A stretch of 64,000 bases of DNA. It comes from Acutalibacteraceae bacterium (lineage in GTDB: Bacteria; Bacillota; Clostridia; Oscillospirales; Acutalibacteraceae). Location: contig JAZSND010000036.1 of assembly GCA_045536235.1 (NCBI GenBank), forward strand, positions 18,890 through 82,889, given 5' to 3'. The translations under genes and the position numbers were made by a program. The notes under the pieces are model-generated. The model was not told the origin of the DNA, did no database searches, and saw only the letters and a list, made by a program, of their open reading frames with translations. The number at the start of each line of letters is the position of its first letter. The first letter of the stretch is position 1. Positions 6,171-43,922 of this stretch are shown one piece after another.

Positions 6171-6522
6171 ATTTTTCTCCATATCTTTCTTTTTTCTGTC
6201 GCTGCCAAAGCTGTTGCAGCCTATATTAAGGTAATATTCATTAAAAGGTTTATTATTACGTCCGTAAATACCATAAGAGTATATCATATTTCAATCTCCT
6301 TTTCAACTTTTGAAAATATGGGAAGTTTTCAACAACATCTTGGTTTGGTGCTAAAAAGTCCTCCCATAAATAGTGCTTACAGGCACTTTTTTTCCCCGAA
6401 AAGGTTGAATTTTTTGCAAAAAAAATAAAAAAAATAAATTTGGGTAATTTTTGGTTGTTTTTACCAAATAAAATTGCCCAAAAAGCAGCGGAAAAGATTT
6501 TCAAAAAAATTTGAAATAACTA

Positions 6523-6566: not shown

Positions 6567-6643
6567 GGCGGCATAGCTCAGTTGGCTAGAGCATTCGGTT
6601 CATACCCGGAGTGTCGTAGGTTCAAGTCCCACTGCCGCTACCA
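6567..6643 (+). tRNA. tRNA-Met (anticodon CAT), elongator type; a lysidine-modified tRNA-Ile2 cannot be excluded
   Basis: I folded the cloverleaf by hand. The acceptor stem is GGCGGCA/TGCCGCT, the anticodon loop is TTCATAC (CAT at 6601-6603), the T-loop is TTCAAGT, and CCA is encoded. There is one A-C mismatch in the T stem. It lacks the three G-C pairs of initiator tRNA. Confidence 0.85.
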
Positions 6644-6671
6644 AGCCAAAGCAAATGCTTTGGCTACACCT

Positions 6672-6746
6672 GGCCCGGTGGTCAAGCGGTCAAGACACCG
6701 CCCTTTCACGGCGGTAACACGAGTTCGATTCTCGTCCGGGTCACCA
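6672..6746 (+). tRNA. tRNA-Glu (anticodon TTC)
   Basis: GGCCCGGTGGTCAAGCGGTCAAGACACCGCCCTTTCACGGCGGTAACACGAGTTCGATTCTCGTCCGGGTCACCA. This is the classic Bacillota tRNA-Glu sequence, with CCA encoded. Confidence 0.93.
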
Positions 6747-9103: not shown

Positions 9104-9474
9104 AAAACTTTCTCCTTACGGGTTGAATTAATGTTTACTGTAATGTACATCATATCACAACATCATTCAGACTGTAAATATATCTGAACGCAAAATTCAG
9201 GATAAATTATATAACATTTACGTTTATTAACATATTTTATCTGATACTTTTAAATATTTCTGAAAAATTATTTATAAGGTCAACACAAATCAGGCGGCAC
9301 TCATTTTTGTAACAGACGGATTTATATGTACTGAATTAAAGAAAAAAATTAGGTTAATAAGTAGACTTTTTAAAATAAAAGTGATAATATTATAATGATC
9401 ATTTATATTTAAACATATATAAAAATAAAAATCCAGTGTTGGAAAACTGGGTTTATTTGTAAAAGTGGTGAATT

Positions 9475-10698
9475 ATGAAGTTGAAGAGTTCAAATAAATC
9501 AGTAATGGAAAAAACGGGTAAAGACAGGCTGTTTGATTCAGCTTGTTATCTTGTACCCTTTGTAAGCCTCGGCGGATATCTTCTTGCCTTAATACTTAAA
9601 GGTGAGATAACATCTGCAGCCGGTTACTATCTGATACATTATCTTTATGCGTACGACCACGGATTTGTTGCCCGCGGATTAGTCGGTGAAGTAATCAGTT
9701 GGTTTTATGAAAATGTAACAGATGAGATTACCCGGAATATTGTTATTCTTTTTTCTTTCCTGTTAATGCTCTCTGCTTCACTTTGTATCGGAAAAGCCCT
9801 GACAAAAGTAAAAAATAATCCTACACTTTTTTTAATAACAGCAGCGCTTTCAGTTTTACTGTGTATTTTACCTGCTTCATTCCGTCACTATTATATTGAT
9901 ATTAAGTTGGATAAATTACTCTGGGCGTTAACCTTGTTTGCTGTTTTGTTTGTTGACAGAAAGTACGGTATATGGCTGGTGCCCGTTTTTTGTATAATTG
10001 CGACGCTTGTAAACCCCGTATTTTTATTTTGCAGTATGATACTGATTGCAATCATTCTGCTTCAAAAATTTTACGATGAAAAATTTGCTGTAAAAAACGG
10101 CATTGTATGTGCGGTTTCATATATCACGATGATAGTTCTGGGAATCTATGCACTGGCTTCGGAAAAATATCTTGGCTTTGAAACCCCGAATGAGATGGTA
10201 GACTATTATTTTTCCAGATACGCAGGAGTGCTTGAAGAGGGAGTATACGATGCCTTTGTGACTGAATGGCTGTATGACTACTTTGAGCCGATGAAAAAAA
10301 TCATATCAATGTCCTTCGAATATTATTTTATCAGATGGGGCAACTGGATTGTATGCCTACTTGACCTGATTATCCTTATGATTCCGACTTACACAATTAC
10401 AGTTTTGTTCTGGAAAAAATGTATGTCGGCTGCTGATAACAGGTTTCAGAAATTCATTTTTTTCCTTTGTCTGATTTCGCCTGCTGTTATTATTTTACCC
10501 ATAATCTTCTCATGGGAAACAAGCAAGTATTTTTATAGCAACTTAATGGTTCAGCTTTCTTTGATGATATACTTCACCGTTACTGAGAATTCAGCAGTTG
10601 TCAGCTGCATAAAAAGTTGTATTAATTGGGTAAAGAACCATATAATTGTTTCAGCGTGTGCCGTGATGTACTTTGCATCAATTATTGTTACGAAATAA
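9475..10698 (+). CDS. polytopic integral membrane protein, unknown family (GT-C/polymerase-like by context only)
   Basis: It is 407 aa with about 10-12 hydrophobic segments. It is the first gene of a tightly packed plus-strand operon. I recognise no motif. Confidence 0.6.
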   Translation: MKLKSSNKSVMEKTGKDRLFDSACYLVPFVSLGGYLLALILKGEITSAAGYYLIHYLYAYDHGFVARGLVGEVISWFYENVTDEITRNIVILFSFLLMLSASLCIGKALTKVKNNPTLFLITAALSVLLCILPASFRHYYIDIKLDKLLWALTLFAVLFVDRKYGIWLVPVFCIIATLVNPVFLFCSMILIAIILLQKFYDEKFAVKNGIVCAVSYITMIVLGIYALASEKYLGFETPNEMVDYYFSRYAGVLEEGVYDAFVTEWLYDYFEPMKKIISMSFEYYFIRWGNWIVCLLDLIILMIPTYTITVLFWKKCMSAADNRFQKFIFFLCLISPAVIILPIIFSWETSKYFYSNLMVQLSLMIYFTVTENSAVVSCIKSCINWVKNHIIVSACAVMYFASIIVTK

Positions 10699-10714
10699 AT
10701 CGGGAGTTTACGGT

Positions 10715-11842
10715 ATGAAAAAGATTTTTAACAAAACTAACGGTGAAATTCTTATATACTTCTTGATTATTTTTTTTACTGGATTTTCCTGTCTGTCCGG
10801 AAGCTGTCTGGATATAAGCACTTTCGATATAAAAATAAACTTTTCTACTGAACTGTTATGGTCTGTTATCAGCATTCTGGTTTTCAGCGCAGCGAGTGCG
10901 GTTTTTGTGCAAAAGCTTATCGCAACCGACAGCGGCATATTGGTTTTACCCGTTCTGCTGCTTTTTTTGGATCCTCTGTTCAGAAATACTTTTACAATCA
11001 GCTCTTATCTTCCTCTGTTGGTTGTTGAGTTTGTTCTCATATTTTATCTGGCTGCGGGTAAATCGGTCAGTGTAAAACTTATACTGACGGCTTTGTTTGC
11101 CTTTGCCTCTTCGCTGGTGTTTTTTACAGCAGCATACAGCTACGTTCCGCTTGTCTTTTGCGTTTACTTACTCAGCGTCATAACGGAAGAAAACAAAAAT
11201 ATCAAAAGTATCAGCAATAAAAACAAACAAAATAAATTAAAAGATAAAGCTAAATCTAAAAAGCAGAAAAGTACAGTCAATGCAGGTGAGCTTTTATCGC
11301 TGATTATTATTGCGGTTACTGTTATTGCGGTAATGCTTAACCGCAGGTTTTCTCAGCAGATTGCTCAGTTGTACTATCCGAAAACGTACAATACAGAAAT
11401 AAGGACAGTTCACGATTGGGTAAGACTTTTATTACCGAGTTTTCCTTATGTTTTTATCCTCTTTGTCTTTATCGGAGAATATCTGACTGATAAATTTAAG
11501 GAGAAAAAATTTACGCTCAGTTCTGTCTTTAGAAAAGCAGGTTTTATTTTTGGCATAGTTGCTTTCTATGTGGTAATACTTTTCGGTATTTTCAAGATGA
11601 ATTCCTTTGAGAGCTATTCGTTGGTAAATTTAATTGTTCCGCTGACTTTGATTTTTGTTTATTTAAAAGACAAAGTCCCTGCAGGAAAAGCTCTTAAAGA
11701 AATTTATGCATGGATAAATGAACACAAAGCGATTACTGCTGTTGTAACCGTTGTGTGGATTGTTGTTACACAATTTTTATTCTACAGTTCTCAGAACACT
11801 CTGTGGGGAGAGATACTTTCAATAGCGGGTAGATTACTGTAA
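10715..11842 (+). CDS. polytopic integral membrane protein, unknown family, with a Lys-rich cytoplasmic loop
   Basis: I moved the start to ATG 10715 (MKKIFNK...) because GGGAG lies 8 nt upstream. It has multiple TM segments and a central loop KNIKSISNKNKQNKLKDKAKSKKQKS. Confidence 0.6.
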   Translation: MKKIFNKTNGEILIYFLIIFFTGFSCLSGSCLDISTFDIKINFSTELLWSVISILVFSAASAVFVQKLIATDSGILVLPVLLLFLDPLFRNTFTISSYLPLLVVEFVLIFYLAAGKSVSVKLILTALFAFASSLVFFTAAYSYVPLVFCVYLLSVITEENKNIKSISNKNKQNKLKDKAKSKKQKSTVNAGELLSLIIIAVTVIAVMLNRRFSQQIAQLYYPKTYNTEIRTVHDWVRLLLPSFPYVFILFVFIGEYLTDKFKEKKFTLSSVFRKAGFIFGIVAFYVVILFGIFKMNSFESYSLVNLIVPLTLIFVYLKDKVPAGKALKEIYAWINEHKAITAVVTVVWIVVTQFLFYSSQNTLWGEILSIAGRLL

Positions 11843-11843
11843 T

Positions 11844-12566
11844 ATGGAATACACTTCACTGACCGTTTTTGTTTTGGCAAACAATGAAACGGATTTGCTC
11901 AGAGCCACGATTGATGCAATAAAAAACAACTGTGCCGATGGCGATTTGGAAAAGATAATAATAGTTGCCAAAAGCGACAGCTGTCCGGCCAGTAATGAAG
12001 CAAGAAAGCTGGCGGAAAGCGATGAAAAAATTGAGCTTTATGTTCAGAAATCGACTACTGCACAGCTGTGTCTTGCGGAATTGCCTGCTTTGGCAACAGG
12101 TTCACATTTTGTAATTATGGCTGCTGATATGGAGATGGATCCTGGTAATCTTTCTGCTTTTATACAAAAAGCCAAAGAACATCCGCGACGCATAATCTGC
12201 GCGGCAAAGTGGCTGCCCGAATCAACAGTTATCGGATACGGTCTGTTTCACTCCGTGTGCAGCAGGACGATGAACAGATTTATCAGTCTGCTTTTTCAGA
12301 AGAAGGTTTTTGATCCCTTTTCAATTTATCAGATTTATCCTGTATCGTTGTACAAAAGCATGAACTTCGACAAGCCCGAAAATTTTCTGTATGAGTATAC
12401 ACTTAAACCGCTTTATCTCGGCGAAGAATATGAGGAGATCCCCACAGTATATCAAAAGAGAAAATCGGGTAAATCAAACTTTAAAATTTTTACACTCTGC
12501 AGCGTAGCTATAAGATTTATTCTGACGGGAATCAGAATACGTTTCAATTTACAGGAGAAAAAATGA
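11844..12566 (+). CDS. family 2 glycosyltransferase, Dpm1/GtrB-like fold with divergent acidic motifs
   Basis: It has the GT2 layout: LTVFVLANNE, VIMAADMEMDP, ...EIPTVYQKRKSGKSNF. The usual VDDGS and DAD motifs read VAKSDS and AAD. It starts 2 nt after the upstream stop. Confidence 0.7.
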   Translation: MEYTSLTVFVLANNETDLLRATIDAIKNNCADGDLEKIIIVAKSDSCPASNEARKLAESDEKIELYVQKSTTAQLCLAELPALATGSHFVIMAADMEMDPGNLSAFIQKAKEHPRRIICAAKWLPESTVIGYGLFHSVCSRTMNRFISLLFQKKVFDPFSIYQIYPVSLYKSMNFDKPENFLYEYTLKPLYLGEEYEEIPTVYQKRKSGKSNFKIFTLCSVAIRFILTGIRIRFNLQEKK

Positions 12567-15016
12567 ATTTTACCGATGACACAATAATAGTTTTGACTGT
12601 CGGCAGTTTCGCTCAGAAGCAGCTGTGCGAAAAGCTTATTCCGGAACTGGATTTATCGGGAATGAGGATTGAGGTTATATCCGACGATGAATTCGGAAAC
12701 AGAATAGGCTCGGGCGGTGCTGTTTTGAATGTCATCGGCAGATATTATGAAACAAACAAAAAGCTTATTGTTATAAATTCAGGCGGATTTTCAAAAAGGA
12801 CATTCAGCTGTGCGGTCAAGGGTAAGGCGTTTGCCCGCACCCTGTGCGGTAATAAACCCGTAACGCTTTTAGAGCATATCATTGACAGTACAGTCAGATT
12901 AACAAAGGCTTTTTCTAAGGGTATAATCCTTTGCTGCAGCGATATTTTAACAGATACGCGTCAAGTGAATATCAGCTTTGACAACAATATAGGGTTCGGT
13001 GTGCTTTCTGACATCGGTACGGGTGTCAATCACGGAGTAATGCTTAAAAACGTCAATCACGAGCTGACAGATTTTCTGCATAAATGCGATGAAAAAATTC
13101 TGAGAAGTTATGCTGAAAAAAACAACGGCAAGGTAATCGTCGATACGGGTATGGTTTTTCTGTGCGATGAATTTGCAGAAAAGCTTTACCGTCTTATCAG
13201 ACAGAATAAGCTGCTTGACTTTATCAGAGAGAACGGAATTGAGCTGAATTTTTATTCTGATGTTTTTCCGTTGCTCAGTAAAAACTTAACTGCAGAGCAG
13301 TATTTTTCACAGATGCCGCAGGACAGCCAACACACTGAACTGAGAAAGATTCTTTACAGCAGCCTCAGTGACTGTTCTCTGAAAGTATGCGTGCTTGAAA
13401 ACCAGAGATTTATGCATTTCGGAACAACCAGACAGCTGCTTGAAAATGTTATTGATATTTCTGATGATTCACCCTATCTGTCAATCGGCAGTGTTACAGA
13501 TGACAGTGTATCGGTTGGCAGCAATACCGTGCTTGACGGTGCTCTGCTTAAGGGGAAGATTGAAACAGGTGCTGACTGTCTGATAAATGATATCGCTCTG
13601 AACGGAGAATTCTGTATACCCGACGGTAAGGTTGTCTGCGGAATAAAGCTGACTGACGGTTCGTTTGTCACCGTGATTACGGATACAGACGAAAATCCCA
13701 AAGATATGTATGACGGTTATGTGCTCTGGGATTTGCCGAGGTTTTATAAAGGCAGAAGCTTTTCCGATTCGCTGAAGAAATTCTTTCGGCAGGCGGATGA
13801 AGAAAAATTCAGTCTGAAGTACTGTACTGAAAATGCTGATTTTAATTTTTTCTATAATCATACCGAATATCTTAAAGGAATAAAAGAAAGCGGTTTTAAT
13901 GAAGAATATTCAAATATAAGAAACAGAATTATTTCTGACTTTTTTGATAATCAAAAAAAGTTTCAGCAGCTGCACTGTGTGAAAGACCGTGTTGAGGTTT
14001 CAATGCCCTTGCGTGTAAACCTCTGCGGAACGTGGACGGATGCAATGCCCTACTGCATCAAAAACGGCGGTACGGTTATCAATGCCGCTGTGACAGTGAA
14101 CGGTGAATTGCCTGTTCGGGTTACTCTTGAAAAGCTCGATAATGAGATTATCGAATTTATAAGCGACGGCAGCTGCACCGAATTCAGCTTTGATGAAACG
14201 CAGGCTTATGACGAGCTTTCTGAGTTTAATCTGCACAGAGTTGTTCTGCAAACCGTCGGTATAACCGGTTACGGTCAGCTCCCGTGCGGTTTGCGGCTGA
14301 GCACGCAGGTCTGCGGAACAGACAAGGGTTCGGGACTTGGCACAAGCAGTATTTTGCTGACAGCCTGCTTTAAAGCTTTTTCGGAAATGTTCGGTCTTGA
14401 CTGTCAGAACAGTGAAATTGTAAAAATGGTTTTTGTTGCAGAACAACTTATGAAAACAGGCGGAGGCTGGCAGGACCAGGTCGGTGGTCTGTATCCCGGG
14501 GTCAAGCTGATTTCGTCTGAACCCGGCCTGCAGCAGAAGGTGAAGGTGAAAAGCATAGAATTGCCGGACAGTTTCAAAAAGCTGTTTTCTCAGTCAGCTG
14601 TGCTGCTGCCGACGGGTCAGCGTCACTTCGGCAGATTTATTGTTACGGATGTTGCAAACCGTTACCTTGACGGCAATCCCGGAACTGTGTCGGCATTAAA
14701 CGAAATAAAAGAACTGAACAGCAGACTACTGGAGTCCATTGAGAATGAAGACACAGCTGCTTTCTATGAGTGCATTAACAGCCATATGCAGCTGCTGACA
14801 AGGATTTCTCCGGCTGTTACAAATACGGTAATCCGGAATATTATCGGAAAATGTGCCTGTATGACTGAGGCTGTTTCAATCTGCGGTGCAGGTGCGGGAG
14901 GATATCTCCTGGCTTTTCTGAAAAAGGGTGTAACTCTTTCTGAATTCAGAAGCTTTATAGCTCTCAATTTTCCGCAGATAAAAAGTGATGTTTTAAAAAC
15001 AGATATTTTTATATAA
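12563..15016 (+). CDS. fkp: bifunctional L-fucokinase / fucose-1-phosphate guanylyltransferase-like protein (Fkp family)
   Basis: The N-terminal half has fucose-1-P guanylyltransferase-type motifs: GSGGAVLNV, NSGGFSKR, HGVM, FMHFGTTRQLL. The C-terminal half is a GHMP kinase: PLRVNLCGTWTDAMPY, GSGLGTSS, KTGGGWQDQVGG, CGAGAGGYL. It is colinear with Bacteroides Fkp as I recall that sequence. It overlaps the GT2 stop by 4 nt (ATGA). Confidence 0.85.
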   Translation: MNFTDDTIIVLTVGSFAQKQLCEKLIPELDLSGMRIEVISDDEFGNRIGSGGAVLNVIGRYYETNKKLIVINSGGFSKRTFSCAVKGKAFARTLCGNKPVTLLEHIIDSTVRLTKAFSKGIILCCSDILTDTRQVNISFDNNIGFGVLSDIGTGVNHGVMLKNVNHELTDFLHKCDEKILRSYAEKNNGKVIVDTGMVFLCDEFAEKLYRLIRQNKLLDFIRENGIELNFYSDVFPLLSKNLTAEQYFSQMPQDSQHTELRKILYSSLSDCSLKVCVLENQRFMHFGTTRQLLENVIDISDDSPYLSIGSVTDDSVSVGSNTVLDGALLKGKIETGADCLINDIALNGEFCIPDGKVVCGIKLTDGSFVTVITDTDENPKDMYDGYVLWDLPRFYKGRSFSDSLKKFFRQADEEKFSLKYCTENADFNFFYNHTEYLKGIKESGFNEEYSNIRNRIISDFFDNQKKFQQLHCVKDRVEVSMPLRVNLCGTWTDAMPYCIKNGGTVINAAVTVNGELPVRVTLEKLDNEIIEFISDGSCTEFSFDETQAYDELSEFNLHRVVLQTVGITGYGQLPCGLRLSTQVCGTDKGSGLGTSSILLTACFKAFSEMFGLDCQNSEIVKMVFVAEQLMKTGGGWQDQVGGLYPGVKLISSEPGLQQKVKVKSIELPDSFKKLFSQSAVLLPTGQRHFGRFIVTDVANRYLDGNPGTVSALNEIKELNSRLLESIENEDTAAFYECINSHMQLLTRISPAVTNTVIRNIIGKCACMTEAVSICGAGAGGYLLAFLKKGVTLSEFRSFIALNFPQIKSDVLKTDIFI

Positions 15017-15104
15017 ACAGTTTAAAAATATCGGAAAGGAAGATACTCTGTGCGATGGAAAATAAAATTCCGTATGTACTATTCTGTATCATCGGTTGAT
15101 ATTA

Positions 15105-17024
15105 ATGGATAAGAAAAATATTTACATTGTTCAGGCGGGCTGCCTTTACGGAAACACCTATTATTTACCATACGCGGCAGGTATGCTGGCAGCCTTTGCT
15201 TTTGACAACAAAATTATACAGGAACACTATGAACTCAAACGGATAATATACAGTCTGGAAGATATTGATGAAAGCATAAACAGTCTGGAAAATCCCGCAT
15301 TTGTAGGCTTTTCGAATTCAATATGGAATTATAACTATAATCTGGTTTATGCCGAAAAATTAAAGAAAGCCTATCCCGACTGTGTTATTGAGTTTGGCGG
15401 ACACCATATTCCGCCGACAACACAGTACCTTGACGATTACAGCTTTATAGATTTGCTTATTCACCGCAAAGGTGAAGAGGCTTTCCGCGATGTTCTGCTG
15501 GCACTTATTGATAACTCCGATTTGTCAGCGATTCCGAATATTTCTTACCGCTTGTCCGACGGAAAAGCGGTACAGACCCCCGAAAGAAAAATTACCGTTT
15601 CGGATTATCCGTCCCCGTATTTAAACGGCTTTTTCGATGATATTATCAAAAACGGCAAGTATCCGTTTTCCTGTGTTATCGAAACCAACAGAGGCTGTCC
15701 GTATAACTGCAGCTACTGTGACTGGGGCGAGCTCAATTCAAAGGTGCGCCTTTTTCCGCTGGAAAAGGTAATGGCAGAGCTTGAGTGGATGGCTGAGCAC
15801 AAAATGGAATTTGTGTACTGTGTCGATGCCAATTTCGGTATGTTTGAACGCGATGAAATTATCGCTCAGAAAATTGTTGAGCTGAAAGAAACAAAGGGCT
15901 ATCCTAACAGACTGCAGGTTTCCTATGCAAAGAGTGAGCAGGACAGAGTTTTCCGAATCAATAAAATGCTTGCCGATCACGGGATAGGAAAAGGTGCGAC
16001 TCTTGCTCTGCAGAGCCTTGAGCCTGACGTGCTTAAAAATGTCGGGCGTGCAAATATCAGCAAAGAGGAATACGCCAGATCAATTTCACGCTACAGAGAT
16101 GCGGGTATTTCGACCTACACAGAGCTGATCCTCGGTTTACCGGGTGAAACATACGAAAGCTTTACGCGCGGTCTTTGCGAAATTCTTGAACTCGGTCAGC
16201 ACAGCTCAGTCAGTGCGTATTACTGCGAGCTGTTGCCGAATTCCGCATTAAGTACACCCGAATATATTGAAAAGTTTAAAATCAGAACGGTATCAACTCA
16301 TCTCAATCAGTACCATTGCGAGGTTATGGACGATGTTCTGTCAGGCAATTCAACCATTATTGTAGGGACAGAAACGCTGTGTACAGATGAATGGATACAC
16401 GCCAACGAGTTTTCAGTCTGCGTACAGAGTCTGCACCATTTCGGAATTATGCAATGCCTTGCAATGTATATCCGTCACGAGTGCGGAGTTTCATATTTCG
16501 AATTCTATACCGAAATTTTCAGGTACATCTTTACAGAAACTGCTTTCTGTAAAGCGGTTTTCCGGGATGTTACGTCAATCCTCAGAAACTTTGTTGACGG
16601 AAAAGGCGGACTGACATATCAGAACGATGTTTTCGGAAAAATAACTTATCCGCTGGAAGAAGCTGTATTTCTGATTTTCCAATATAATTCCAAGCTGTTT
16701 TATGAAGAGATGGAAAGATTTGTCCGCAGATATATCAAAGACGAAAAACTTCTCTATCAGCTTTTCAAATATCAGCGTGCGGTTGTTCTAAGACCCGGAA
16801 TGAACGAATTCACCAAGTGTTTTGACTACGACTTTTCCGAATACTTCGATTCTATACTCAGAAATTCATATACCCCGTTAAAGAAAAAAAGAGTAAAATA
16901 CAAGTTCTCAACCGTATTCGCTACAGACAGCTGGGAAGAATATGCGAGGGAAATAATCTGGTACGGCAGAAGAAACAGCAGAATGATGTTTTCGAGTGCT
17001 CCCAACCGTATAGAAAAAATCTGA
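15105..17024 (+). CDS. B12-binding-domain radical SAM enzyme (class B), paralog 1
   Basis: The N-terminal region is Rossmann-like and B12-type (VGFSNSIWNYNYN...FGGHHIPP). The CxxxCxxC motif CPYNCSYC is at 15696-15719. It also has ELILGLPGETYESF, GQH and a C-terminal EEYAREIIWYGRRN. I prefer ATG 15105; the ORF-track TTG 15096 is possible. Confidence 0.85.
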   Translation: MDKKNIYIVQAGCLYGNTYYLPYAAGMLAAFAFDNKIIQEHYELKRIIYSLEDIDESINSLENPAFVGFSNSIWNYNYNLVYAEKLKKAYPDCVIEFGGHHIPPTTQYLDDYSFIDLLIHRKGEEAFRDVLLALIDNSDLSAIPNISYRLSDGKAVQTPERKITVSDYPSPYLNGFFDDIIKNGKYPFSCVIETNRGCPYNCSYCDWGELNSKVRLFPLEKVMAELEWMAEHKMEFVYCVDANFGMFERDEIIAQKIVELKETKGYPNRLQVSYAKSEQDRVFRINKMLADHGIGKGATLALQSLEPDVLKNVGRANISKEEYARSISRYRDAGISTYTELILGLPGETYESFTRGLCEILELGQHSSVSAYYCELLPNSALSTPEYIEKFKIRTVSTHLNQYHCEVMDDVLSGNSTIIVGTETLCTDEWIHANEFSVCVQSLHHFGIMQCLAMYIRHECGVSYFEFYTEIFRYIFTETAFCKAVFRDVTSILRNFVDGKGGLTYQNDVFGKITYPLEEAVFLIFQYNSKLFYEEMERFVRRYIKDEKLLYQLFKYQRAVVLRPGMNEFTKCFDYDFSEYFDSILRNSYTPLKKKRVKYKFSTVFATDSWEEYAREIIWYGRRNSRMMFSSAPNRIEKI

Positions 17025-17038
17025 TTTCAACATAAAGT

Positions 17039-18952
17039 GTGGTGATAAATCTGAAAAGAATATATATATCTCAGCCCAATTCACAGTACGGCAAATCCAT
17101 TTATTTTCCATATGCCGCAGGCTCGCTTATTGCTTATGCCTTTGATGATGAGAGAATAAAAAGTGCATACGATTTCAAAGGCTTTGTCTACAAAAAAACA
17201 GATATAGACGCTATCGTTTCAGATTTGGATTCACCGTTTGTTTTTGGCTTTTCCTGTTATATCTGGAACTACGAATACAACAAGGCTCTTGCAAGGGCTG
17301 TCAAGTCAGCTTTCCCCGATTGCAGAATAGTTTTCGGCGGTCATCAGGTCAATGAAAACAGCGATATTGTACGGGAGGAGTTTGTTGATTATATCCTGCT
17401 CGGTGAGGGCGAAGAAAGTTTCCGCAAGCTGCTTTTGTGTTTTTGCGGCGAGGAGAAAATTGAAAATATACCCGATCTTCTTTATCGCAAAGACAACGCT
17501 TTTGTCAGGACAGACTCAGTCTGCCCGGATATTCCGCACAGGGTTTCACCTTATGTCAACGGGTATTTTGACAGCCTTGTTCAGGCCGAGGAGCTTGCTT
17601 TTTCAGCAATTCTTGAAACCAACAGAGGCTGTCCGAATAAATGTGCATTCTGTGATTGGGGAAACATAAAATCCAGAATCACGCTGTACGATCTGAAGAC
17701 CGTTAAGGCAGAAATCGACTGGATGGCTGAAAACAGAATTGAATACTGCTACTGTGCCGATTCAAACTTCGGTCTGTTTGAAAGAGATATGGAGGTTGTT
17801 GATTACCTGATACAAAAGCACAGGGAAACAGGCTATCCTCAGAAGTTTCAGGCAACATATTCTAAGAACAATCCCGGAACAGTTTTCGCCATTACAAAAA
17901 AGCTCAACGAATCGGGAATGAGCAAGGGCGCCACGCTGTCATTCCAGTCAATGCAGCAGGAGGTGCTGGACAATATCTACAGAAAAAATATGCCGCTGTC
18001 AAGCTTTAAAGAGTTGATGTCGCTGTACAGCAAAAACGGAATTTCGGCATACTCGGAAATTATAATCGGTCTGCCGGGTGAATCCTACGAAAGCTTCAAG
18101 GACGGTATTGAACAGCTGCTTGAGTCAGGTCAGCATATGTCCATCAATTTCTTTAACTGTGAGCTTCTGGTGAATTCCGTTATGAACGACCCTTACTACG
18201 TGGAAAAGCACAGAATAAAATATGCTCTGACCGAGCTTCACCAATATCACATAGAGCCGAAAGAAAACGAAATACCTGAGCTTTCGCGCATTGTTGTTTC
18301 AACATCAACGATGTCAGAAAACGATTGGATGCAGTGCAATATTCTGTCCGTTTTTGTACGTGCTTTTCATAATCTCGGCTTGCTTCAGGCTGTTGCGATT
18401 TATCTTTATTTTGAAAAGAATATTCCTTATACAGACTTTTACTGTTCCCTCATCAGGTGGTCGGAGTCAAAGCCCGATTCTGTCTGCGGTCAGATTTATT
18501 TATGGCTCAGGGCTAAGTATGAAGAGGTTCTGAGGAATGAAGGCTCGCTGACCGGCGTTGAACCCGATTTCGGACTGCTGACGTGGCCGCTTGATGAAGC
18601 CGCTTTCCTTAAAGCGATAAAGGATATCAAAAGATTTTATGAGGAAACGGCAGAGTTTATCAGACCTTATTTTGATGATAAAGAAGTATATAACGGACTC
18701 ATGCTGTACCAGACGTCTGTTGTCAAGAGCCCGTACAACTCAGAAGCTGATTTGCTTCTGAGCCATGACTGGTATGCGTATTTTAAATCGGTGTATACGA
18801 ACTGTTACGCTCCGCTTGTCAAAAAAACGAACAGAATATTTATCGACGCTTCCGATATTCCGTCTGACCCTGAAGAATACGCAAAGCAGGTAATATGGTT
18901 CGGCAGAAAAGGCGGACAGAACATCATTACAAATATAAATTATATTAATTGA
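17039..18952 (+). CDS. B12-binding-domain radical SAM enzyme (class B), paralog 2
   Basis: It has the same architecture. CPNKCAFC is at 17630-17653. The C-terminal motif is EEYAKQVIWFGRKG. It uses a GTG start 15 nt after the paralog 1 stop. Confidence 0.85.
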   Translation: MVINLKRIYISQPNSQYGKSIYFPYAAGSLIAYAFDDERIKSAYDFKGFVYKKTDIDAIVSDLDSPFVFGFSCYIWNYEYNKALARAVKSAFPDCRIVFGGHQVNENSDIVREEFVDYILLGEGEESFRKLLLCFCGEEKIENIPDLLYRKDNAFVRTDSVCPDIPHRVSPYVNGYFDSLVQAEELAFSAILETNRGCPNKCAFCDWGNIKSRITLYDLKTVKAEIDWMAENRIEYCYCADSNFGLFERDMEVVDYLIQKHRETGYPQKFQATYSKNNPGTVFAITKKLNESGMSKGATLSFQSMQQEVLDNIYRKNMPLSSFKELMSLYSKNGISAYSEIIIGLPGESYESFKDGIEQLLESGQHMSINFFNCELLVNSVMNDPYYVEKHRIKYALTELHQYHIEPKENEIPELSRIVVSTSTMSENDWMQCNILSVFVRAFHNLGLLQAVAIYLYFEKNIPYTDFYCSLIRWSESKPDSVCGQIYLWLRAKYEEVLRNEGSLTGVEPDFGLLTWPLDEAAFLKAIKDIKRFYEETAEFIRPYFDDKEVYNGLMLYQTSVVKSPYNSEADLLLSHDWYAYFKSVYTNCYAPLVKKTNRIFIDASDIPSDPEEYAKQVIWFGRKGGQNIITNINYIN

Positions 18953-18959
18953 CAGACTT

Positions 18960-20882
18960 GTGGTGAGCATTTTGGAAAAGAAAAAAATTTACTTTGTTCA
19001 ACCGAATACAATGCTGGGCAATTCCGTTTACTTCCCCTATGCTGTCGGTGTATTGGCTTCCTATGCCATGCAGTTTGAGGATATTGAGCAGAATTATGAA
19101 ATCGGTGGAATATTTTTCAAAGAGGATTCCGAGGAGGATGTTTTCCGCTGTATCGAAAAGCCTTTCATAGTCGGTTTTTCAAACTATTTCTGGAACTATA
19201 AATACAATCTGAAAATTGCAGAAAAAGTCAAGGAAAAATATCCCGGCTGCACGGTGATTTTCGGCGGACACCAGATTCCGCGAAGCACAGAGTTTCTTGA
19301 AAAATATCCGTTTATTGATTTGCTGATATTCGGTGAAGGCGAAATGCCATTTGTGAATATTCTGCGTGCTTTGGATTCACACGGAAAGGTTTCCGGTATC
19401 TGCAATGTTGCGTACAGAAACGAGTCGGGCGAGATTGTGAAAACGCCTGACAAATACGAGGGTGTTGAAGATTATCCCTCACCCTATCTTACGGGTATAT
19501 TTGACAGGCTGTGCAATGTTCCTGACGGCATTGAGTTTAACGCACAGCTTGAAACCAACAGAGGATGTCCGTATCACTGTTCGTTCTGTGACTGGTGCGA
19601 TTACGATATTCCTATGCGGAAATTCCCGATGGAACGGGTTAAAAAAGACCTTGAGTGGATTTCGGCACATAAAATTTCTTACTGTATGTGTGTTGATTCG
19701 AATTTCGGTCTTTTTGAGCGTGATGAGGAAATTGCCCGCTTTGCAGCAGAGCTGAAAACAAAAAACGGCTATCCCGACAAATTCGGTGCCTGCTTTGCAA
19801 AAAACAAAACCGACCGTATATTCAGAATAAACAAGCTTCTCAATGATGTCGGAATGAGCAAAGGTGTTTCGCTTGCATTCCAGAGTATGTCAGAAGATGT
19901 TCTGAAAAATATTTCACGCAGAAACATGAACAAGGACAGTCTGTCAGACCAGCTTGAGATGTATCACAAGGCAGGTATTCCCACCTACACGGAGCTGATT
20001 CTCGGTCTGCCGGGTGAAACGCTGGAGAGCTTTTCAAAGGGCATATGTGAGCTTCTTGAAAGAGGTCAGCACGACTCAATCAACGTTTTCCGCTGCGAGG
20101 TTTATCCGAATTCTACCCTTGCCGACAAAGCGTATATGAAAAAGTTCGGCATAAAAACTGCAATAAACAAGCTCAACATAAATCACTGCAAGATTTCCAA
20201 CGCAGTTTTTGCAGGCGGACTTGAATATATCGTCGAAACCTCTACGATGACAGCAAAGGAGCTTGTAAAGGCAACTGTTTTTTCAGCGTGTATCCAGAGC
20301 ATACACTGTCACGGACTGTTACAGTGCTTTGCAATATATATGCACAATTCTATGGGTGTCAGCTATTACGATTTTTATGAGGCGTTCACAGCTTACTTTG
20401 CCGGAAGGGACGGAGTAATCGGCGATACTGTCCGCAGAATCAGTAAATGTATTGAGTCAACCTCTGAGGGTGCGACGGATATGTCGTATATCAATCCCGA
20501 ATTCGGAGATATAACATGGCCTTATGAAGAGGCAATGCTTCTTGATTATATTTATGAGCTTGACAAATTCTACGGTGAGGCGAAAGAGTTTATAATGTCA
20601 TTCGGCATTGACCCGAAGGTGTTTGACGAGCTTATGCTTTATCAGAAAAATATGATAGTTGTACCGGGTGTCAACGATGTTACACTTGATTTTGAGTATG
20701 ACTGGAATTCATATTTTGACGGTATACTTTCCAACAGAGAAGTATGCCTTGAGAAAAGACCGACTGTTGTCAGATTCTTTGCAGAGCGTGTTCCCGACAG
20801 CTGGAAAGATTACGCCCGTGAAATAATCTGGTACGGCAGAAGAAACAAAAAAACAATCAGAAAAACTGAAGTAATTCAATAG
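18960..20882 (+). CDS. B12-binding-domain radical SAM enzyme (class B), paralog 3
   Basis: It has the same architecture. CPYHCSFC is at 19566-19589. The C-terminal motif is KDYAREIIWYGRRN. It uses a GTG start 8 nt after the paralog 2 stop. Confidence 0.85.
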   Translation: MVSILEKKKIYFVQPNTMLGNSVYFPYAVGVLASYAMQFEDIEQNYEIGGIFFKEDSEEDVFRCIEKPFIVGFSNYFWNYKYNLKIAEKVKEKYPGCTVIFGGHQIPRSTEFLEKYPFIDLLIFGEGEMPFVNILRALDSHGKVSGICNVAYRNESGEIVKTPDKYEGVEDYPSPYLTGIFDRLCNVPDGIEFNAQLETNRGCPYHCSFCDWCDYDIPMRKFPMERVKKDLEWISAHKISYCMCVDSNFGLFERDEEIARFAAELKTKNGYPDKFGACFAKNKTDRIFRINKLLNDVGMSKGVSLAFQSMSEDVLKNISRRNMNKDSLSDQLEMYHKAGIPTYTELILGLPGETLESFSKGICELLERGQHDSINVFRCEVYPNSTLADKAYMKKFGIKTAINKLNINHCKISNAVFAGGLEYIVETSTMTAKELVKATVFSACIQSIHCHGLLQCFAIYMHNSMGVSYYDFYEAFTAYFAGRDGVIGDTVRRISKCIESTSEGATDMSYINPEFGDITWPYEEAMLLDYIYELDKFYGEAKEFIMSFGIDPKVFDELMLYQKNMIVVPGVNDVTLDFEYDWNSYFDGILSNREVCLEKRPTVVRFFAERVPDSWKDYAREIIWYGRRNKKTIRKTEVIQ

Positions 20883-20900
20883 GATAAGGAGGGACCTGAA

Positions 20901-22820
20901 ATGAAGAATGTTTATTTTGTTCAACCCAACAATTCTCTTTCGGGTTCTCTTTTTTTACCTTATGCTGTCGGTTCGCTTGCAGCATATTCTTTTCAGCACG
21001 AAGAGATAAAAAGCAGTTATAATCTGTGCGAATTTATTTTCACAAAGGATACTGTTGAAAAAGCGCTCGAAAAAATAAAAGACCCGTACATAACCGGCTT
21101 TTCCTGCTATATGTGGAATGTTGAATACAATCTTATGCTTGCGGAAGAAATCAAGAAGAAATATCCGCAGTCAATCATTGTTTTCGGCGGTCCGCAGGTT
21201 CCTAACGACACGCAGTATCTGCAGGAATACGGCTTTATTGATATACTGATACACGGCGAAGGTGAAATTGCTTTTTATGAATTTCTGAGAAGTGCTGACG
21301 GCGGAAACGATCCGGGCAGTATCTTTAACATATCCTACAGAAAAGACGGAGAGATTTTAAAGACAGCGCAAAAATCTGTTTGCGATTTAAGCGGCTTTCC
21401 GTCCCCTTATTCGGCGGGACTGTTTGACAGCATTATTGACAATCCCGAATATGAGGGGATACAGTTTGATGCAATCATAGAAACCAACAGAGGCTGTCCG
21501 TACAGATGCATTTACTGCTGTTGGGCAGGCAACAAGGATATTTTCCGCCAGTTCCCTGAGAAGAGAATCAAAGAGGATTTGGATTGGATAGCAAAAAATA
21601 AAATCGCTTTTTGTATTTGTGCGGATTCAAATTTCGGTATACTTGACCGTGATGAAAAAATAGCGGAATATATCGTTGAGCTTAAACGTACTTACGGCTA
21701 TCCGCAGAAATTTGAAACAACGGCGGCAAAGAATAAAGACAGTCTTGTATTCAGAATTAATCAGAAGCTTGATTCCGAAAACCTGAACCGCGGTATATCC
21801 GTAGCGGTGCAGAGTATGTCAGAAAAAGTTCTGGAAATAATAGGCAGAAAAAACATATCGGTCGACAACCTTGCCGAACAGCTGGACAAATACAGAAAAG
21901 CGGGAATGTACACCTACACCGATATTATTCTGGGACTTCCGGGTGAAACGTTCGATAGCTTCTGCGAAGGGCTGTTCAGTGTTATTGAAGCAGGTCAGCA
22001 TTATTCCATTAACATAAACCGCTGTGAATTTTTGCCGAACTCGCTTATGTATACAAAGGAATATGTTGACAAATACAAAATAAAAACAATCCGTTCCTAT
22101 CTGTGCCAGAACCACAGCAGAAAGGTTGAGAATCTGCGGTTCGGTTCACGTTCGGAGCTTGTTGTTGAAACGGATACAATGAGCAAAGCTGACTGGAGAA
22201 GAGCGCTCAGGCTGTCTGTGTGTGTGCAGAGCTTTCACTGTATGGGGCTGCTGCGCTTCATCGCAGTTTATCTGAGAAAAGCACGGAAAATATCGTACAG
22301 GGAATTCTATTTCAATTTGTTTGAATGGATAGAAAACGAAAGCATATTTATAAAGCAAACGTTGGATTATGTCTGCGCAAGCATAGATGATTTTCTGTAC
22401 GGAAACGGAAATCTTTCTTTTTCTGACAGCAGGTTCGGAGAAATTTACTGGCCGTTTGATGAGGCACTGTTCCTCTGCCTTGCGTGTGAGGCGGATAACT
22501 TCTACAGAGAAATCAGCAGCTTTTTGTCGGTCGCTTTGGATCAGAACGATGAAATGATTTCTGATTTGTACAGGTATCAGAAGAATATAATTCTTTTGCC
22601 CGACCGGAGCGAAAATACATTCAGCCTGCGCTATGACTGGCATAAATATTTTGATGATTTGTATGATACGGAGGTCACCGTTCCGGCCGAACGAAGACTT
22701 GTAATCAGAACAGAAAAAAGCGAATTAAAATCGTGGGAGGATTACGCTCGTTACATTGTCTGGTACGGCAGACGTGACGATAAAACCGTCAACAAAAATA
22801 TCACTTGCAGTTACGGATAA
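20901..22820 (+). CDS. B12-binding-domain radical SAM enzyme (class B), paralog 4
   Basis: It has the same architecture. CPYRCIYC is at 21495-21518. The C-terminal motif is EDYARYIVWYGRRD. A strong AAGGAGG lies upstream of ATG 20901. Confidence 0.87.
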   Translation: MKNVYFVQPNNSLSGSLFLPYAVGSLAAYSFQHEEIKSSYNLCEFIFTKDTVEKALEKIKDPYITGFSCYMWNVEYNLMLAEEIKKKYPQSIIVFGGPQVPNDTQYLQEYGFIDILIHGEGEIAFYEFLRSADGGNDPGSIFNISYRKDGEILKTAQKSVCDLSGFPSPYSAGLFDSIIDNPEYEGIQFDAIIETNRGCPYRCIYCCWAGNKDIFRQFPEKRIKEDLDWIAKNKIAFCICADSNFGILDRDEKIAEYIVELKRTYGYPQKFETTAAKNKDSLVFRINQKLDSENLNRGISVAVQSMSEKVLEIIGRKNISVDNLAEQLDKYRKAGMYTYTDIILGLPGETFDSFCEGLFSVIEAGQHYSININRCEFLPNSLMYTKEYVDKYKIKTIRSYLCQNHSRKVENLRFGSRSELVVETDTMSKADWRRALRLSVCVQSFHCMGLLRFIAVYLRKARKISYREFYFNLFEWIENESIFIKQTLDYVCASIDDFLYGNGNLSFSDSRFGEIYWPFDEALFLCLACEADNFYREISSFLSVALDQNDEMISDLYRYQKNIILLPDRSENTFSLRYDWHKYFDDLYDTEVTVPAERRLVIRTEKSELKSWEDYARYIVWYGRRDDKTVNKNITCSYG

Positions 22821-22831
22821 AGTTCAAAAAA

Positions 22832-22873
22832 CACACAACGTTCCGCTTTAATCGGACGTTGTGTGCTTTTTAT
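22832..22873. terminator. bidirectional rho-independent terminator closing the operon
   Basis: A 13-bp stem (CACACAACGTTCCG / CGGACGTTGTGTG, one bulge) has CTTTTTATT downstream and AAAAAA upstream. It lies between convergent genes. Confidence 0.85.
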
Positions 22874-22937: not shown

Positions 22938-24107
22938 TCAACATACGGCATTGGGTACAACGTCGCGTTGTTCTGTCTGCGCAAGGCGGTTGAGCATTTC
23001 AAGGTAAAGGCTGAGCGTTTTGTTTCTATCGGCAAAAAGGCCTATCGGTTTTCCGTGGTCGCCGCTGAGTGTCGGCATTGCGTGCCAGATACCCGGCTCA
23101 AGCTCATCAGCTGCGCTGTAATCCTTATGAGGTTCGTCAATGGGATATTTTGCGGATTCAACGTCAATCAGTCCGTCGTTTTCTATGTAGAACTTAGCCT
23201 CATCTTCAGGCAGTGTTTTTGCGTATTTAAGCATCAGGCCGGATATAAGCGTGAGAATCGGAATTTTAGATACGGGCCTGTTATTCTGCACCATGTTGTA
23301 CTGATATGAAAAATAATAGATGTCCGGCACGATTTCAATACGGTCATTAAGCTCCTTTGAGCCCTGAACGGAAATATCGTAATCAATGCTGTCCGTATTT
23401 GTATAATATTTGTGTGCAACGTAAACAATGGGATCAGCATCTTTTTTATCCGTCATATTTGTAAGCCTTAAACGTTCCATGTGAAAATCTGTATATTTTT
23501 TGCCGACGGAAGTTCTGGACATTAAACCTGCATAAATAAGTGAAATAAATTTAGTCGGATTGATAAGTCCTGTTTTGTCAACAACTACGTGTGCGCGTGT
23601 ACCGCTTAAGGGAGAACAGATTGCGGTGATACTCGCAATAAGCCCCGTTTGTCCGCCCTTGAAAAGCGGAGAAACATCGTCGCCTGCAGCCTCAACCTCT
23701 TCTGGAGCGCCGTAAACCATGAGGTGACTGAGCATACGTATACATATGCCGCCGAAGGAATGACCGATAAGGTGAACCTTGCGGTTTTTGCTCCAGCCGT
23801 CAAAAAGCGGCTTTTCGTATGTACGTCCGAAACGCTCGTGGCCGAATTTTCTTGAATGGGCAACTCCGTAGTCAACACGTGTGCCCGTCAGCTGCGCATA
23901 AAGCTCACACGCCTGGTCCCATGCAGGTGACATCGGGCCGACAGAGCCGCAGTAACATTCGCAGCCGTATTCACGCAGCCTGTCAGTAAGGCTGCCTGTA
24001 GTTGCACCCCAGTAGGGAGCTTTTTTGTTTATACCCTCATTATCGCCCCAGCCGTACATGCCGTGGACAAAAACTACCGGATATTTCGGTGTGCTGCTGT
24101 AATCCAT
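22938..24107 (-). CDS. alpha/beta-hydrolase triacylglycerol lipase/esterase
   Basis: It has YPVVFVHGMYGWG (oxyanion region) and the nucleophile elbow GHSFGG. It is 389 aa with no signal peptide. Confidence 0.7.
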   Translation of the reverse strand: MDYSSTPKYPVVFVHGMYGWGDNEGINKKAPYWGATTGSLTDRLREYGCECYCGSVGPMSPAWDQACELYAQLTGTRVDYGVAHSRKFGHERFGRTYEKPLFDGWSKNRKVHLIGHSFGGICIRMLSHLMVYGAPEEVEAAGDDVSPLFKGGQTGLIASITAICSPLSGTRAHVVVDKTGLINPTKFISLIYAGLMSRTSVGKKYTDFHMERLRLTNMTDKKDADPIVYVAHKYYTNTDSIDYDISVQGSKELNDRIEIVPDIYYFSYQYNMVQNNRPVSKIPILTLISGLMLKYAKTLPEDEAKFYIENDGLIDVESAKYPIDEPHKDYSAADELEPGIWHAMPTLSGDHGKPIGLFADRNKTLSLYLEMLNRLAQTEQRDVVPNAVC

Positions 24108-32645: not shown

Positions 32646-32666
32646 AAACTCAAGGAGGTAATTATA

Positions 32667-33881: not shown

Positions 33882-33895
33882 GGAGGTAGATTAAA

Positions 33896-35011: not shown

Positions 35012-35046
35012 TTATCAGGATTTTATTATAAAGAAGGAGAAAAGCT

Positions 35047-43675: not shown

Positions 43676-43922
43676 AATTACAGTTTGGCAGCGTGACGCT
43701 GCACCCAATGCCGGTGCGAAGCGCACACCGGATGCCGCCTATTGAAAAATATCATTAATAATAAAAATACATCAACGGCGGAGATTAAAAAGCGCAAAAG
43801 AAACATAAATATAAAAATTAAAGATGCTGTGAAGTGCATACAGCTCAAAAAGTTCTTTTGGTTACTTTTGCAACGCTTGACAAAAGTAACATAACGAATC
43901 CTGATTATATCGCTGCAGTTTA
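43676..43922 (+). repeat. intergenic repeat family, copy B2 (about 200-bp internal deletion)
   Basis: It starts AATTACAGTTTGGCAGCGTGACGCTGC. The core is deleted between GCTGTGAA and GTGCATA. It ends TATATCGCTGCAGTTTA, overlapping the stop codon of the BlaR1-like gene. Confidence 0.88.

Follow-up and report, generated by a model that had tools for sequence, protein, structure and literature searches.

The closest described relatives of the locus discussed here are found in bacterial lipid-linked glycosylation and in antibiotic biosynthesis. In the three-component glycosylation systems (GtrA/GtrB/Gtr*, CsbB/GtcA/YfhO and the Citrobacter ORF15/14/12 pentofuranose system; PMC11127046), a family 2 glycosyltransferase (GT2) is encoded beside a polytopic membrane protein, an arrangement that this locus shares. 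A sugar linked to polyprenyl phosphate (polyprenyl-P) can also be tailored before its transfer by a glycosyltransferase of the GT-C type, as has been described for ArnD, for DprE1/E2 and for the Citrobacter ORF13 epimerase (PMC11127046). ArnC/ArnD/ArnT (Und-P-Ara4FN) and DprE1/DprE2 (decaprenyl-P-ribose to decaprenyl-P-arabinose) share with the pathway proposed here the logic that a sugar is modified on polyprenyl phosphate before a membrane transferase takes it over. TokK and CysS are cobalamin (B12)-dependent radical S-adenosylmethionine (rSAM) methylases from actinomycete and myxobacterial antibiotic clusters, where they occur as one enzyme per locus next to beta-lactam or non-ribosomal peptide synthetase (NRPS) genes, and the hallmark of their clade is iterative methyl-on-methyl chemistry. 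In this work, an operon is described in which homologs of these enzymes stand together. It occupies positions 9475-22820 on the + strand of a 64,000-nucleotide stretch from an Acutalibacteraceae bacterium (assembly GCA_045536235.1, contig JAZSND010000036.1, positions 18,890 to 82,889), which is referred to as the window throughout. The operon encodes a pair of membrane proteins (memA and memB), a GT2, an Fkp-like sugar-activating protein and four TokK-type rSAM proteins (rS1-rS4).

All enzymes of the operon come from known superfamilies, and as a whole they follow a logic like that of three-component or Arn-type lipid-linked glycosylation; the combination has not been described before. Literature searches on these rSAM proteins in connection with fucokinase, glycans, glycolipids, polyprenyl and GT-C returned no description of such a cluster, which is also unmentioned in two 2026 reviews on B12-rSAM and lipid-rSAM enzymes, so that the absence of a characterized match stated in an earlier note on this DNA is borne out. 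Tentatively, and with a confidence that stays somewhat below the halfway mark, the eight genes are read as one operon for the lineage-restricted decoration of an envelope glycan or glycolipid via a lipid-linked sugar, with radical C-methylation as the tailoring step. The features of the operon are as follows.

Promoter-like element (extended -10), 9362..9390, + strand: TAGACT, 17 nt, TGaTAATAT, with overlapping consensus matches
memA, 9475..10698, + strand: polytopic membrane protein, ~10 transmembrane (TM) helices
memB, 10715..11842, + strand: memA paralog, 375 aa in the public annotation (P0241)
GT2, 11844..12566, + strand: 240 aa, Dpm1/ArnC-type, PF00535
Fkp-like, 12563..15016, + strand: 817 aa, PF07959 and GHMP kinase domain
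rS1, 15105..17024, + strand: TokK-type B12 radical SAM protein, orthogroup rS1, core
rS2, 17039..18952, + strand: TokK-type B12 radical SAM protein, orthogroup rS2, core
rS3, 18960..20882, + strand: TokK-type B12 radical SAM protein, orthogroup rS3, frequent
rS4, 20901..22820, + strand: TokK-type B12 radical SAM protein, orthogroup rS4, variable, AGGAGG Shine-Dalgarno sequence
Bidirectional intrinsic terminator, 22826..22873: A-run, 13-bp G+C-rich stem with one bulge, U-run

The conservation of this gene set was studied by scanning the memA alignment against one genome per species, covering 185,579 species. The 46 memA loci found are all located in metagenome-assembled genomes (MAGs) of uncultured Acutalibacteraceae, Oscillospiraceae or 'Clostridia' (Oscillospirales), largely from the animal gut. 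Counting the families that recur around memA gives memA itself in 48 loci, TokK-like rSAM proteins in 38 (130 genes), memB in 37, Fkp in 36 and GT2 in 23, and the next most frequent family, found in 11 loci, is a syntenic housekeeping gene. The gene order differs between loci: memA-memB-GT2-Fkp-rS1-4 in the window is GT2-memA-memB-rS-rS-rS-Fkp in locus L006, and in locus L005 the genes are divided over two divergent transcription units. The co-occurrence that the earlier note had proposed to look for is therefore present, since the gene set recurs with shuffled order in dozens of genomes, and the rearranged order together with unrelated flanks indicates selection on co-location and thus a functional linkage. 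The Acutalibacteraceae differ in their rSAM orthogroups, with 1 to 5 per locus. The invariant core is memA plus memB, nearly always accompanied by rSAM genes (in L030 and L039, memA and memB stand without rSAM genes nearby), and the GT2 and Fkp genes are frequent but separable. It could be argued from the loci that miss GT2 or Fkp that the adjacency is fortuitous, or that the genes are decaying and share no pathway. This has a negligible probability, since all eight open reading frames (ORFs) are intact, catalytic motifs are kept across 20-35 orthologs, the same five families return in ~40 loci despite rearrangements and unrelated flanks, and the operon is bracketed by one conserved promoter motif and one terminator. 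Chance adjacency is effectively refuted by the co-conservation.

A second, distant lineage was observed in anaerobic-digester metagenomes (L001 1-21938, L053 1-21926 and L054 1-21938). These loci are arrays of 6-9 TokK-like rSAM genes plus 2-4 genes for other B12-rSAM proteins (~495 aa), with the number of B12-rSAM genes reaching at least 12, together with a memA-like gene, a memB-like gene, a GT2 gene with 31% identity, a small rSAM gene (407 aa) and a gene for a membrane protein of 640 aa that matches PMT_2 faintly. The metagenome look-ups of distant memA relatives gave mostly short contigs. The GT2 subfamily is found only beside these rSAM genes, the distant lineage included, and this holds for 5/5 metagenome matches (short loci). 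In seven Acutalibacteraceae genomes an accessory module is present beside the cluster (L017 5272-8569, and also L022, L025, L026, L032, L035 and L052), which encodes a small MoaA/SPASM-like rSAM protein (351 aa), a protein similar to epimerases/dehydratases of the short-chain dehydrogenase/reductase superfamily (291 aa) and a second memA paralog (~400 aa). By analogy, the logic of this module resembles sugar deoxygenation by an rSAM dehydratase and a reductase, which is consistent with sugar tailoring.

The four rSAM proteins are ~640 aa each and contain a B12-binding and a Radical_SAM domain according to Pfam and NCBIfam, as the earlier note had read from the letters. PF04055 scores 40-56 bits in rS1-rS4, above gathering, and PF02310 scores 23-35 bits, around its gathering score of 32.1. 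The cluster motif CxxxCxxC is present in all four in the form RGCPxxCxYC, with C198, C202 and C205 invariant in 42 homologs. In these homologs W74 is also invariant and aligns with TokK W76, the tryptophan that lies under the corrin in the TokK structure. In sequence comparison, TokK (7kdx) is matched with an E-value of 9e-90 and ~38% identity across residues 20-498, and CysS with an E-value of 2e-49. The AlphaFold2 (AF2) model of rS1, with a predicted local distance difference test (pLDDT) score of 89, superposes on TokK with a template modelling (TM) score of 0.90 and a root-mean-square deviation of 3.1 Å over 684 columns, covering the full chain including the C-terminal cap domain. For CysS this score is 0.78, and the next family, TsrM, reaches just 0.47. 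The best NCBIfam model for all four proteins is NF033712 (KedN5 family), with 225-257 bits, below the cutoff of 700, and the match covers model positions 1-400 of 624. By sequence, rS1-rS4 are a sister clade of the KedN5 family rather than members of it. Sequence and modelled structure support rS1-rS4 as homologs of TokK/CysS-type cobalamin-dependent methylases, and methyl transfer would be their expected activity.

The rSAM orthogroups appear, from their sequences, to be ancient and separately conserved. Orthologs share 49-81% identity and paralogs 37-45%; for rS2 the values are 52-75% to orthologs and 37-40% to paralogs, and orthologs share 71-80% for rS3 and 49-67% for rS4. rS1 occurs in 31 loci, rS2 in 33, rS3 in 21 and rS4 in 11; a fifth type is found in 5. 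A locus typically carries rS1, rS2 and rS3, and the window contains all four of rS1-rS4. Orthogroup-specific sequence is most pronounced in the C-terminal cap domain, with 31.5% identity between orthogroups and 57.6% within, as would be expected if each rSAM protein has its own site or step. This domain is also the part least conserved relative to TokK, and this divergence from TokK and between paralogs suggests that substrate recognition has diverged. A 1099-aa protein on a 3.9-kb ENA contig (P0098) was considered as an informative domain fusion and was rejected: it joins a TokK-like rSAM protein reduced to its C-terminal two-thirds to a complete second copy, and is probably a frameshift, an assembly artefact or a fusion of tandem genes.

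Compared with TokK and CysS, the proteins of the operon have the same three-domain architecture, the CxxxCxxC motif, the tryptophan at the W76 position and the ~38% identity over 480 residues. The setting and the multiplicity differ. Where TokK and CysS stand singly among antibiotic genes, rS1-rS4 and their relatives are found in anaerobic gut Firmicutes, with three to twelve paralogs per locus and envelope-type glycosylation genes as neighbors, and they have a diverged C-terminal domain and scores below the KedN5-family cutoff. Methylation of unactivated sugar carbons by class-B rSAM enzymes is reportedly carried out by GenK and GenD1 in gentamicin biosynthesis. By description, the substrates of these enzymes are aminoglycoside pseudo-oligosaccharides of secondary metabolism; each enzyme performs one methylation, and they have no link to polyprenyl-P carriers or membrane transferases, unlike the setting of this operon. 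Class-B rSAM sugar C-methylation has also been mentioned generically (PMC12931638).

Methylation of lipids by B12-rSAM enzymes has precedent in HpnP, HpnR and Gmm (review PMC13459092), and an alternative is that the rSAM proteins methylate hydrocarbon, either in a membrane lipid or in the polyprenyl carrier, with the GT2 and the Fkp-like protein adding a sugar head group and the properties of the membrane being altered. Arrays with 12 or more genes would be easier to explain by a long chain that offers many positions than by one sugar, and the rSAM genes are tightly linked to two integral membrane proteins. This alternative is nevertheless considered improbable, and of those with any real weight it is the one given the least. 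TokK and CysS are by far the closest relatives, and the models for HpnP/HpnR, the ladderane enzymes and HpnJ give 30-66 bits, where the KedN5 family model gives 225-257 bits. In addition, lipid-synthesis genes are absent from the related loci, and by hydropathy the rSAM proteins lack a membrane-binding segment.

The GT2 matches PF00535 with 30.4 bits as a single sequence. A profile built from 20 orthologs matches only dolichyl-phosphate mannose synthase (DPMS; 5mlz, E-value 2.6e-12) and ArnC (E-value 1e-8) in the Protein Data Bank (PDB), and both matches span the whole catalytic domain. One of these two families, ArnC, comes from the Arn pathway, and the assignment as a Dpm1/GtrB-like GT2 made from the letters agrees with this result. 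At the DxD position D95 and E97 are invariant, with the DPMS motif 'DAD-x-Q' reading 'aaD95-x-E97', and the C-terminal signature EIPTxYxxRxxGKSNF is present. No TM helix is predicted, and the C-terminus is amphipathic. These sequence features support the GT2 as a homolog of Dpm1/GtrB/ArnC-type polyprenyl-phosphate glycosyltransferases.

The Fkp-like protein matches PF07959 with an E-value of 6.5e-46 and 157.6 bits (cutoff 34), and its GHMP_kinases_N domain (PF00288) scores 33.5 bits (cutoff 22.3). The kinase domain matches Bacteroides fragilis Fkp (5yys) with an E-value of 1e-33. The motifs GSGGA, NSGGxSKR, CCSDI, GTWTDAMPYC, KGSGLGTSSILL and TGGGWQDQ are kept in 35 orthologs, and the set covers both the nucleotidyltransferase and the GHMP kinase domain. 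Domain identity and motifs thus characterize the protein, as far as homology can, as a bifunctional sugar-1-kinase/sugar-1-phosphate nucleotidyltransferase, in line with the Fkp-type identity first proposed. The score against the NCBIfam equivalog model NF009948 is 231.9 bits, below the cutoff of 721, and therefore the sugar and nucleotide specificity may differ from L-fucose and GTP. B. fragilis Fkp, an L-fucokinase/GDP-L-fucose pyrophosphorylase, has the same two-domain organization and a similar gut setting, with salvage of host or dietary sugar into surface glycans. It is 949 aa long and stands alone, and the protein of the operon is ~130 aa shorter and lies among rSAM genes.

For memA and memB, no family was matched in the local Pfam and NCBIfam libraries, and no transporter family was among the matches, which speaks against their being unrelated transporters. 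The earlier note had called them two orphan polytopic proteins. The lack of a Pfam or NCBIfam family stands, and as a pair they are not orphans, being related to each other as paralogs: the memB profile aligns with the memA-family profile with 97.7% probability in hhalign (E-value 2.2e-12, 258 columns). Homologs of memA carry precomputed matches to PF27463 'Rv1490' and at times to PF19830 DUF6311, and in the literature no function was found for either of these families. The memA/memB family comprises 534 representative clusters among 1.84 billion. The best-conserved stretch of memA is the loop after TM1 (YYLIHYLYxYDHGFVxRGLVGEVISWF), and the invariant residues are R57 and E62 in this first loop, D136 and K137. 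These residues are predicted to face outward because the positively charged N-terminus is placed inside. The AF2 model of memA (pLDDT 92) gives weak Foldseek matches in the PDB, with E-values of at least 0.2 and a best TM-score of 0.41 (ALG3), and the family profile has no sequence match among the PDB chains. All Foldseek matches with a probability above 0.45 are GT-C proteins (PIGU, ALG3, ALG12, AftB and Pmt1); matches of the G-protein-coupled receptor type have a low probability. On the model, the outward-facing conserved polar residues resemble a GT-C active site, although inconclusively, and memA is possibly a GT-C-like transferase, as the conserved member of a new membrane-protein family.

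A database search with memB returned memB itself as the sole match, and it was characterized via positional orthologs and profile-profile comparison. A memB-sized ORF follows memA in 43/44 loci with a median identity of 17.6%, and the conserved positions among these positional orthologs are two prolines, with no polar residues. The alignment with the memA family begins past the conserved first loop, which memB lacks, and memB carries a Lys-rich cytoplasmic loop. Judged by its sequence, memB is a degenerate, fast-evolving paralog of memA. The pair in L057, a more distant locus, consists of two recognizable memA-like genes. The simplest reading is that memA and memB are a catalytic subunit and a degenerate partner. 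The GC content of memA, memB and the GT2 gene is 33-36%, compared with 45-50% in the flanks, and this low GC content and the very fast divergence of memB are like the signatures of surface-polysaccharide genes.

Since it is established to which family every enzyme belongs and that it is intact, as are the operon organization, the co-conservation and the memA/memB paralogy, a pathway of envelope decoration can be outlined. The Fkp-like enzyme would convert a salvaged free sugar to the sugar-1-phosphate and further to the nucleoside diphosphate (NDP)-sugar; judging from the Fkp family, the nucleotide would be GDP and the sugar fucose or a related 6-deoxyhexose or pentose. The GT2 would then move the sugar onto polyprenyl phosphate, its presumed acceptor, at the cytoplasmic face. 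The four TokK-type rSAM proteins would methylate unactivated sp3 carbons of the intermediate, with methylation, target and order of steps all being proposals, and by analogy with the tailoring by ArnD and DprE1/E2 this could take place while the intermediate is bound to the nucleotide or to the lipid carrier. Both the identity of the sugar as a 6-deoxyhexose and its role, in place of another moiety, as the methylation target are pure inference. After flipping, memA would pass the modified sugar to an envelope acceptor at the outer face, using invariant polar residues located in its first outward loop and at the external end of TM4, and would probably act as a heterodimer with the catalytically degenerate memB. 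The number and identity of the rSAM proteins, 1-5 per locus and at least 12 in the second lineage, would set the methylation pattern and diversify the surface structure. A more specific version is that in uncultured gut Clostridia a TokK-like battery makes multi-C-methylated envelope sugars in NDP- or polyprenyl-P-linked form, possibly a 6-deoxy sugar extended by ethyl, isopropyl or tert-butyl groups, with memA/memB as a heterodimeric glycosyltransferase of an unrecognized family that transfers the sugar outside the cell and the orthogroups as a combinatorial code for surface diversity. This version is regarded as less likely than not, with a realistic chance of being an unprecedented envelope chemistry; if true, it would be the first case in which cobalamin-dependent radical methylation serves the primary biosynthesis of envelope glycans, and it would tie bacterial surface chemistry directly to the cobamide supply of the gut. 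In the Arn and DprE pathways the modification is a deformylation or an epimerization by oxidation and reduction, compared with the radical C-methylation proposed here, and their acceptors (lipid A and arabinan) and transferases (ArnT and Emb/Aft) are well defined, unlike those of the operon.

Several observations weigh against this reading of envelope decoration. All carriers are uncultured MAGs. In this GT2 family, Ala takes the place of the first Asp in the DAD motif of DPMS, and the GT-C assignment of memA is weak, given the Foldseek values and the missing PDB sequence match. Neither Pfam nor NCBIfam detected a flippase (GtrA, SMR, MATE or Wzx) among the eight operon proteins, and no GtrA, SMR or MATE family is recurrent in the ~60 related loci examined; memB might conceivably stand in for the flippase. 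L063 (memA-memB-Fkp-4 rSAM) has no GT2 gene within 10 kb, and L064 (memA-memB-4 rSAM) has neither a GT2 gene within that distance nor Fkp. Sugar activation and lipid loading are therefore not obligatory neighbors of the memA/memB/rSAM core. The L001/L053/L054 lineage lacks Fkp in its arrays, and 12 or more rSAM genes plausibly exceed the need of one monosaccharide. The likeness to three-component glycosylation systems that the earlier note had drawn thus holds for the type of GT2, and it falls short at the flippase and at the loci without GT2 or Fkp; for memA it is tentative, given the weak Foldseek matches, all of which are GT-C proteins above a probability of 0.45. Further similarities with these systems are the outward-facing conserved residues, the weakly GT-C-like memA model, and a compact accessory operon of low G+C content with highly divergent membrane components. 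On the other hand, this operon lacks the GtrA, SMR or MATE flippase, its membrane component is a paralog pair from an undescribed family instead of a recognized GT-C family, and it has a dedicated Fkp-type salvage enzyme, a GT2 that is not present in every locus and, unlike any described system of this kind, B12 radical SAM enzymes, three to five in number and four here.

A further point against methylation of a lipid-linked sugar is that TokK and CysS, the structurally characterized relatives, methylate pantetheinylated small molecules and not sugars or lipids. This leads to the alternative that the rSAM proteins act on a pantetheine-linked group, bound to coenzyme A (CoA) or a carrier protein, and, through successive methylations, build a branched alkyl or acyl unit that is later joined to a glycan or lipid. 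Both solved homologs bind pantetheinylated substrates (PDB 7kdy and 9n1b/9n1c), the TM-score of 0.90 to TokK includes the substrate-capping C-terminal domain, and the iterative chemistry typical of the clade would fit such a unit. However, this domain is the one least conserved relative to TokK and between the paralogs, and an acyl carrier protein, a CoA ligase, an acyltransferase or a thioesterase is not recurrent in any form in the ~60 loci. We consider this alternative quite unlikely, if a little less so than lipid methylation.

Another alternative concerns the end product, which could be a free compound instead of a decorated polymer: a glycolipid, membrane-bound or secreted, or a small glycoside, such as a polyprenyl-P-sugar with several C-methyl groups or some other conjugate of lipid and sugar. 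In this case memA/memB would act as synthase, flippase, exporter or scaffold for the enzymes of the cytoplasm and not as a GT-C transferase. TokK, ThnK, CysS and the KedN5 relatives tailor secondary metabolites, and the minimal core of L064 contains memA, memB and rSAM genes without GT2 or Fkp. The cluster also stands in differing genomic contexts, like an accessory island, the GT-C signal of memA is weak, and memB has no conserved polar residues. Set against this, the conservation of memA lies at the predicted extracytoplasmic face, as for an outward-facing enzyme, and the relatives of the GT2 make lipid-linked donors, not end products. Core scaffold genes (polyketide synthase (PKS), NRPS, terpene or fatty-acid synthase), an ATP-binding cassette (ABC) or major facilitator superfamily (MFS) exporter and a resistance gene were all sought, and none is recurrent in the ~60 related loci. 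A free product is considered unlikely, but it is the alternative to be taken most seriously. Pathways of ribosomally synthesized and post-translationally modified peptides (RiPPs), NRPS and PKS are also not indicated: a precursor peptide, a scaffold synthase, a protease or an exporter was found neither in the operon nor as a recurrent gene in the related loci, and the ORF and Pfam scans of the operon agree with what had been stated earlier on this point.

The organization of the operon supports its description as one compact unit of eight genes over ~13.5 kb with one promoter motif and one terminator. ORF calling and translation gave eight co-directional, tightly packed ORFs on the + strand of 9475-22820. 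The earlier note had described the same packing with nine genes; its own list also sums to eight, and there is no further + strand ORF of at least 80 aa in this interval. With the best-supported starts the intergenic spacers are +16, +1, -4, +88, +14, +7 and +18 nt, and the ATGA overlap described earlier is that of the GT2 and Fkp-like genes at 12563-12566. The apparent overlap of -26 nt between memA and memB does not hold, as it arises because the longest memB ORF begins at TTG 10673; the start at ATG 10715, which lies 9 nt behind a GGAG Shine-Dalgarno sequence, agrees with the public annotation and gives the spacer of +16 nt. The ATG of memA at 9475 is preceded by a GGTG Shine-Dalgarno sequence and aligns with the starts of its relatives, and the public annotation begins at 9505.

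The leader upstream of memA is 370-400 nt long and, as had been noted, AT-rich (33% GC). The promoter motif at 9362-9390 is kept upstream of memA in L007, L009, L010, L013 and L004, and it is the sole conserved part, as the rest of the leader cannot be aligned among relatives. A riboswitch (cobalamin or other) in the leader was rejected, with no Rfam match at the gathering score or at an E-value of 1 or below, as were a leader peptide, with no ORF of at least 20 aa in the leader, and an invertible promoter, with just weak AT-rich inverted repeats. Small ORFs the size of a precursor peptide are absent from the leader and the intergenic gaps. At the other end, the strong bidirectional terminator reported before is confirmed by an RNA fold of -19.9 kcal/mol (z = -4.17), a stability that was reached in 0/200 shuffles. 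The gene beyond the terminator (22938-24107) is convergent and lipase-like.

To the left of the operon, dnaN (3005-4111, - strand), dnaA (4866-6287, - strand) and two tRNA genes (6567-6743) are present, and the cumulative GC skew has its minimum near 9000. From dnaA, dnaN and this minimum it follows that the replication origin lies directly left of the operon, which is on the leading strand. Beside the origin, positions 1001-2700 are very AT-rich (27.8% GC), with a 280-aa ORF without a Pfam family and a 250-aa Exo_endo_phos protein, and this stretch may be foreign DNA. Downstream, a glycogen operon (glgB, a GT4 gene, glgC, a glgD-like gene and glgA) at 29662-36471 is unrelated to the cluster. 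An 805-aa protein is encoded at 39128-41545 (+ strand), of which residues 63-433 match the MFS_2 sugar transporter family, within a first part of ~430 residues; the other ~370 residues match no family, and the next gene encodes a 533-aa Exo_endo_phos protein. At 43920-46220 (- strand), a 766-aa membrane sensor-protease of the BlaR1/M56 type is encoded, whose C-terminal half has no Pfam match. A gene for an XRE-family helix-turn-helix (HTH) regulator stands on the opposite strand at the end of the cluster in L005 (21322-21660), L063 (18641-18931) and L064 (17757-18368). In the window no HTH regulator is adjacent to the cluster, and the nearest HTH_3 gene is at 36566-37219. The 272-aa protein encoded on the opposite strand beside the XRE regulator in L063 was considered as a GT2 and was rejected, as it is not a GT2 homolog.

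It is surprising that TokK-type methylases are expanded and tied to envelope glycosylation genes in gut anaerobes. If the envelope reading is true, the TokK/CysS-type iterative methylases, so far regarded as rare antibiotic-tailoring enzymes, would have a far larger and unexplored radiation in anaerobic gut bacteria. Sugars or glycolipids methylated on unactivated carbons would then form a new class of microbial surface chemistry, which would matter for hydrophobicity, phage receptors and recognition by the immune system, and the structure of the envelope would depend on the availability of cobamides in the gut. The proteins memA and memB define a new membrane-protein family and a candidate GT-C-like transferase. 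The operon is compact, which makes the hypothesis open to heterologous expression although every natural host is uncultured.

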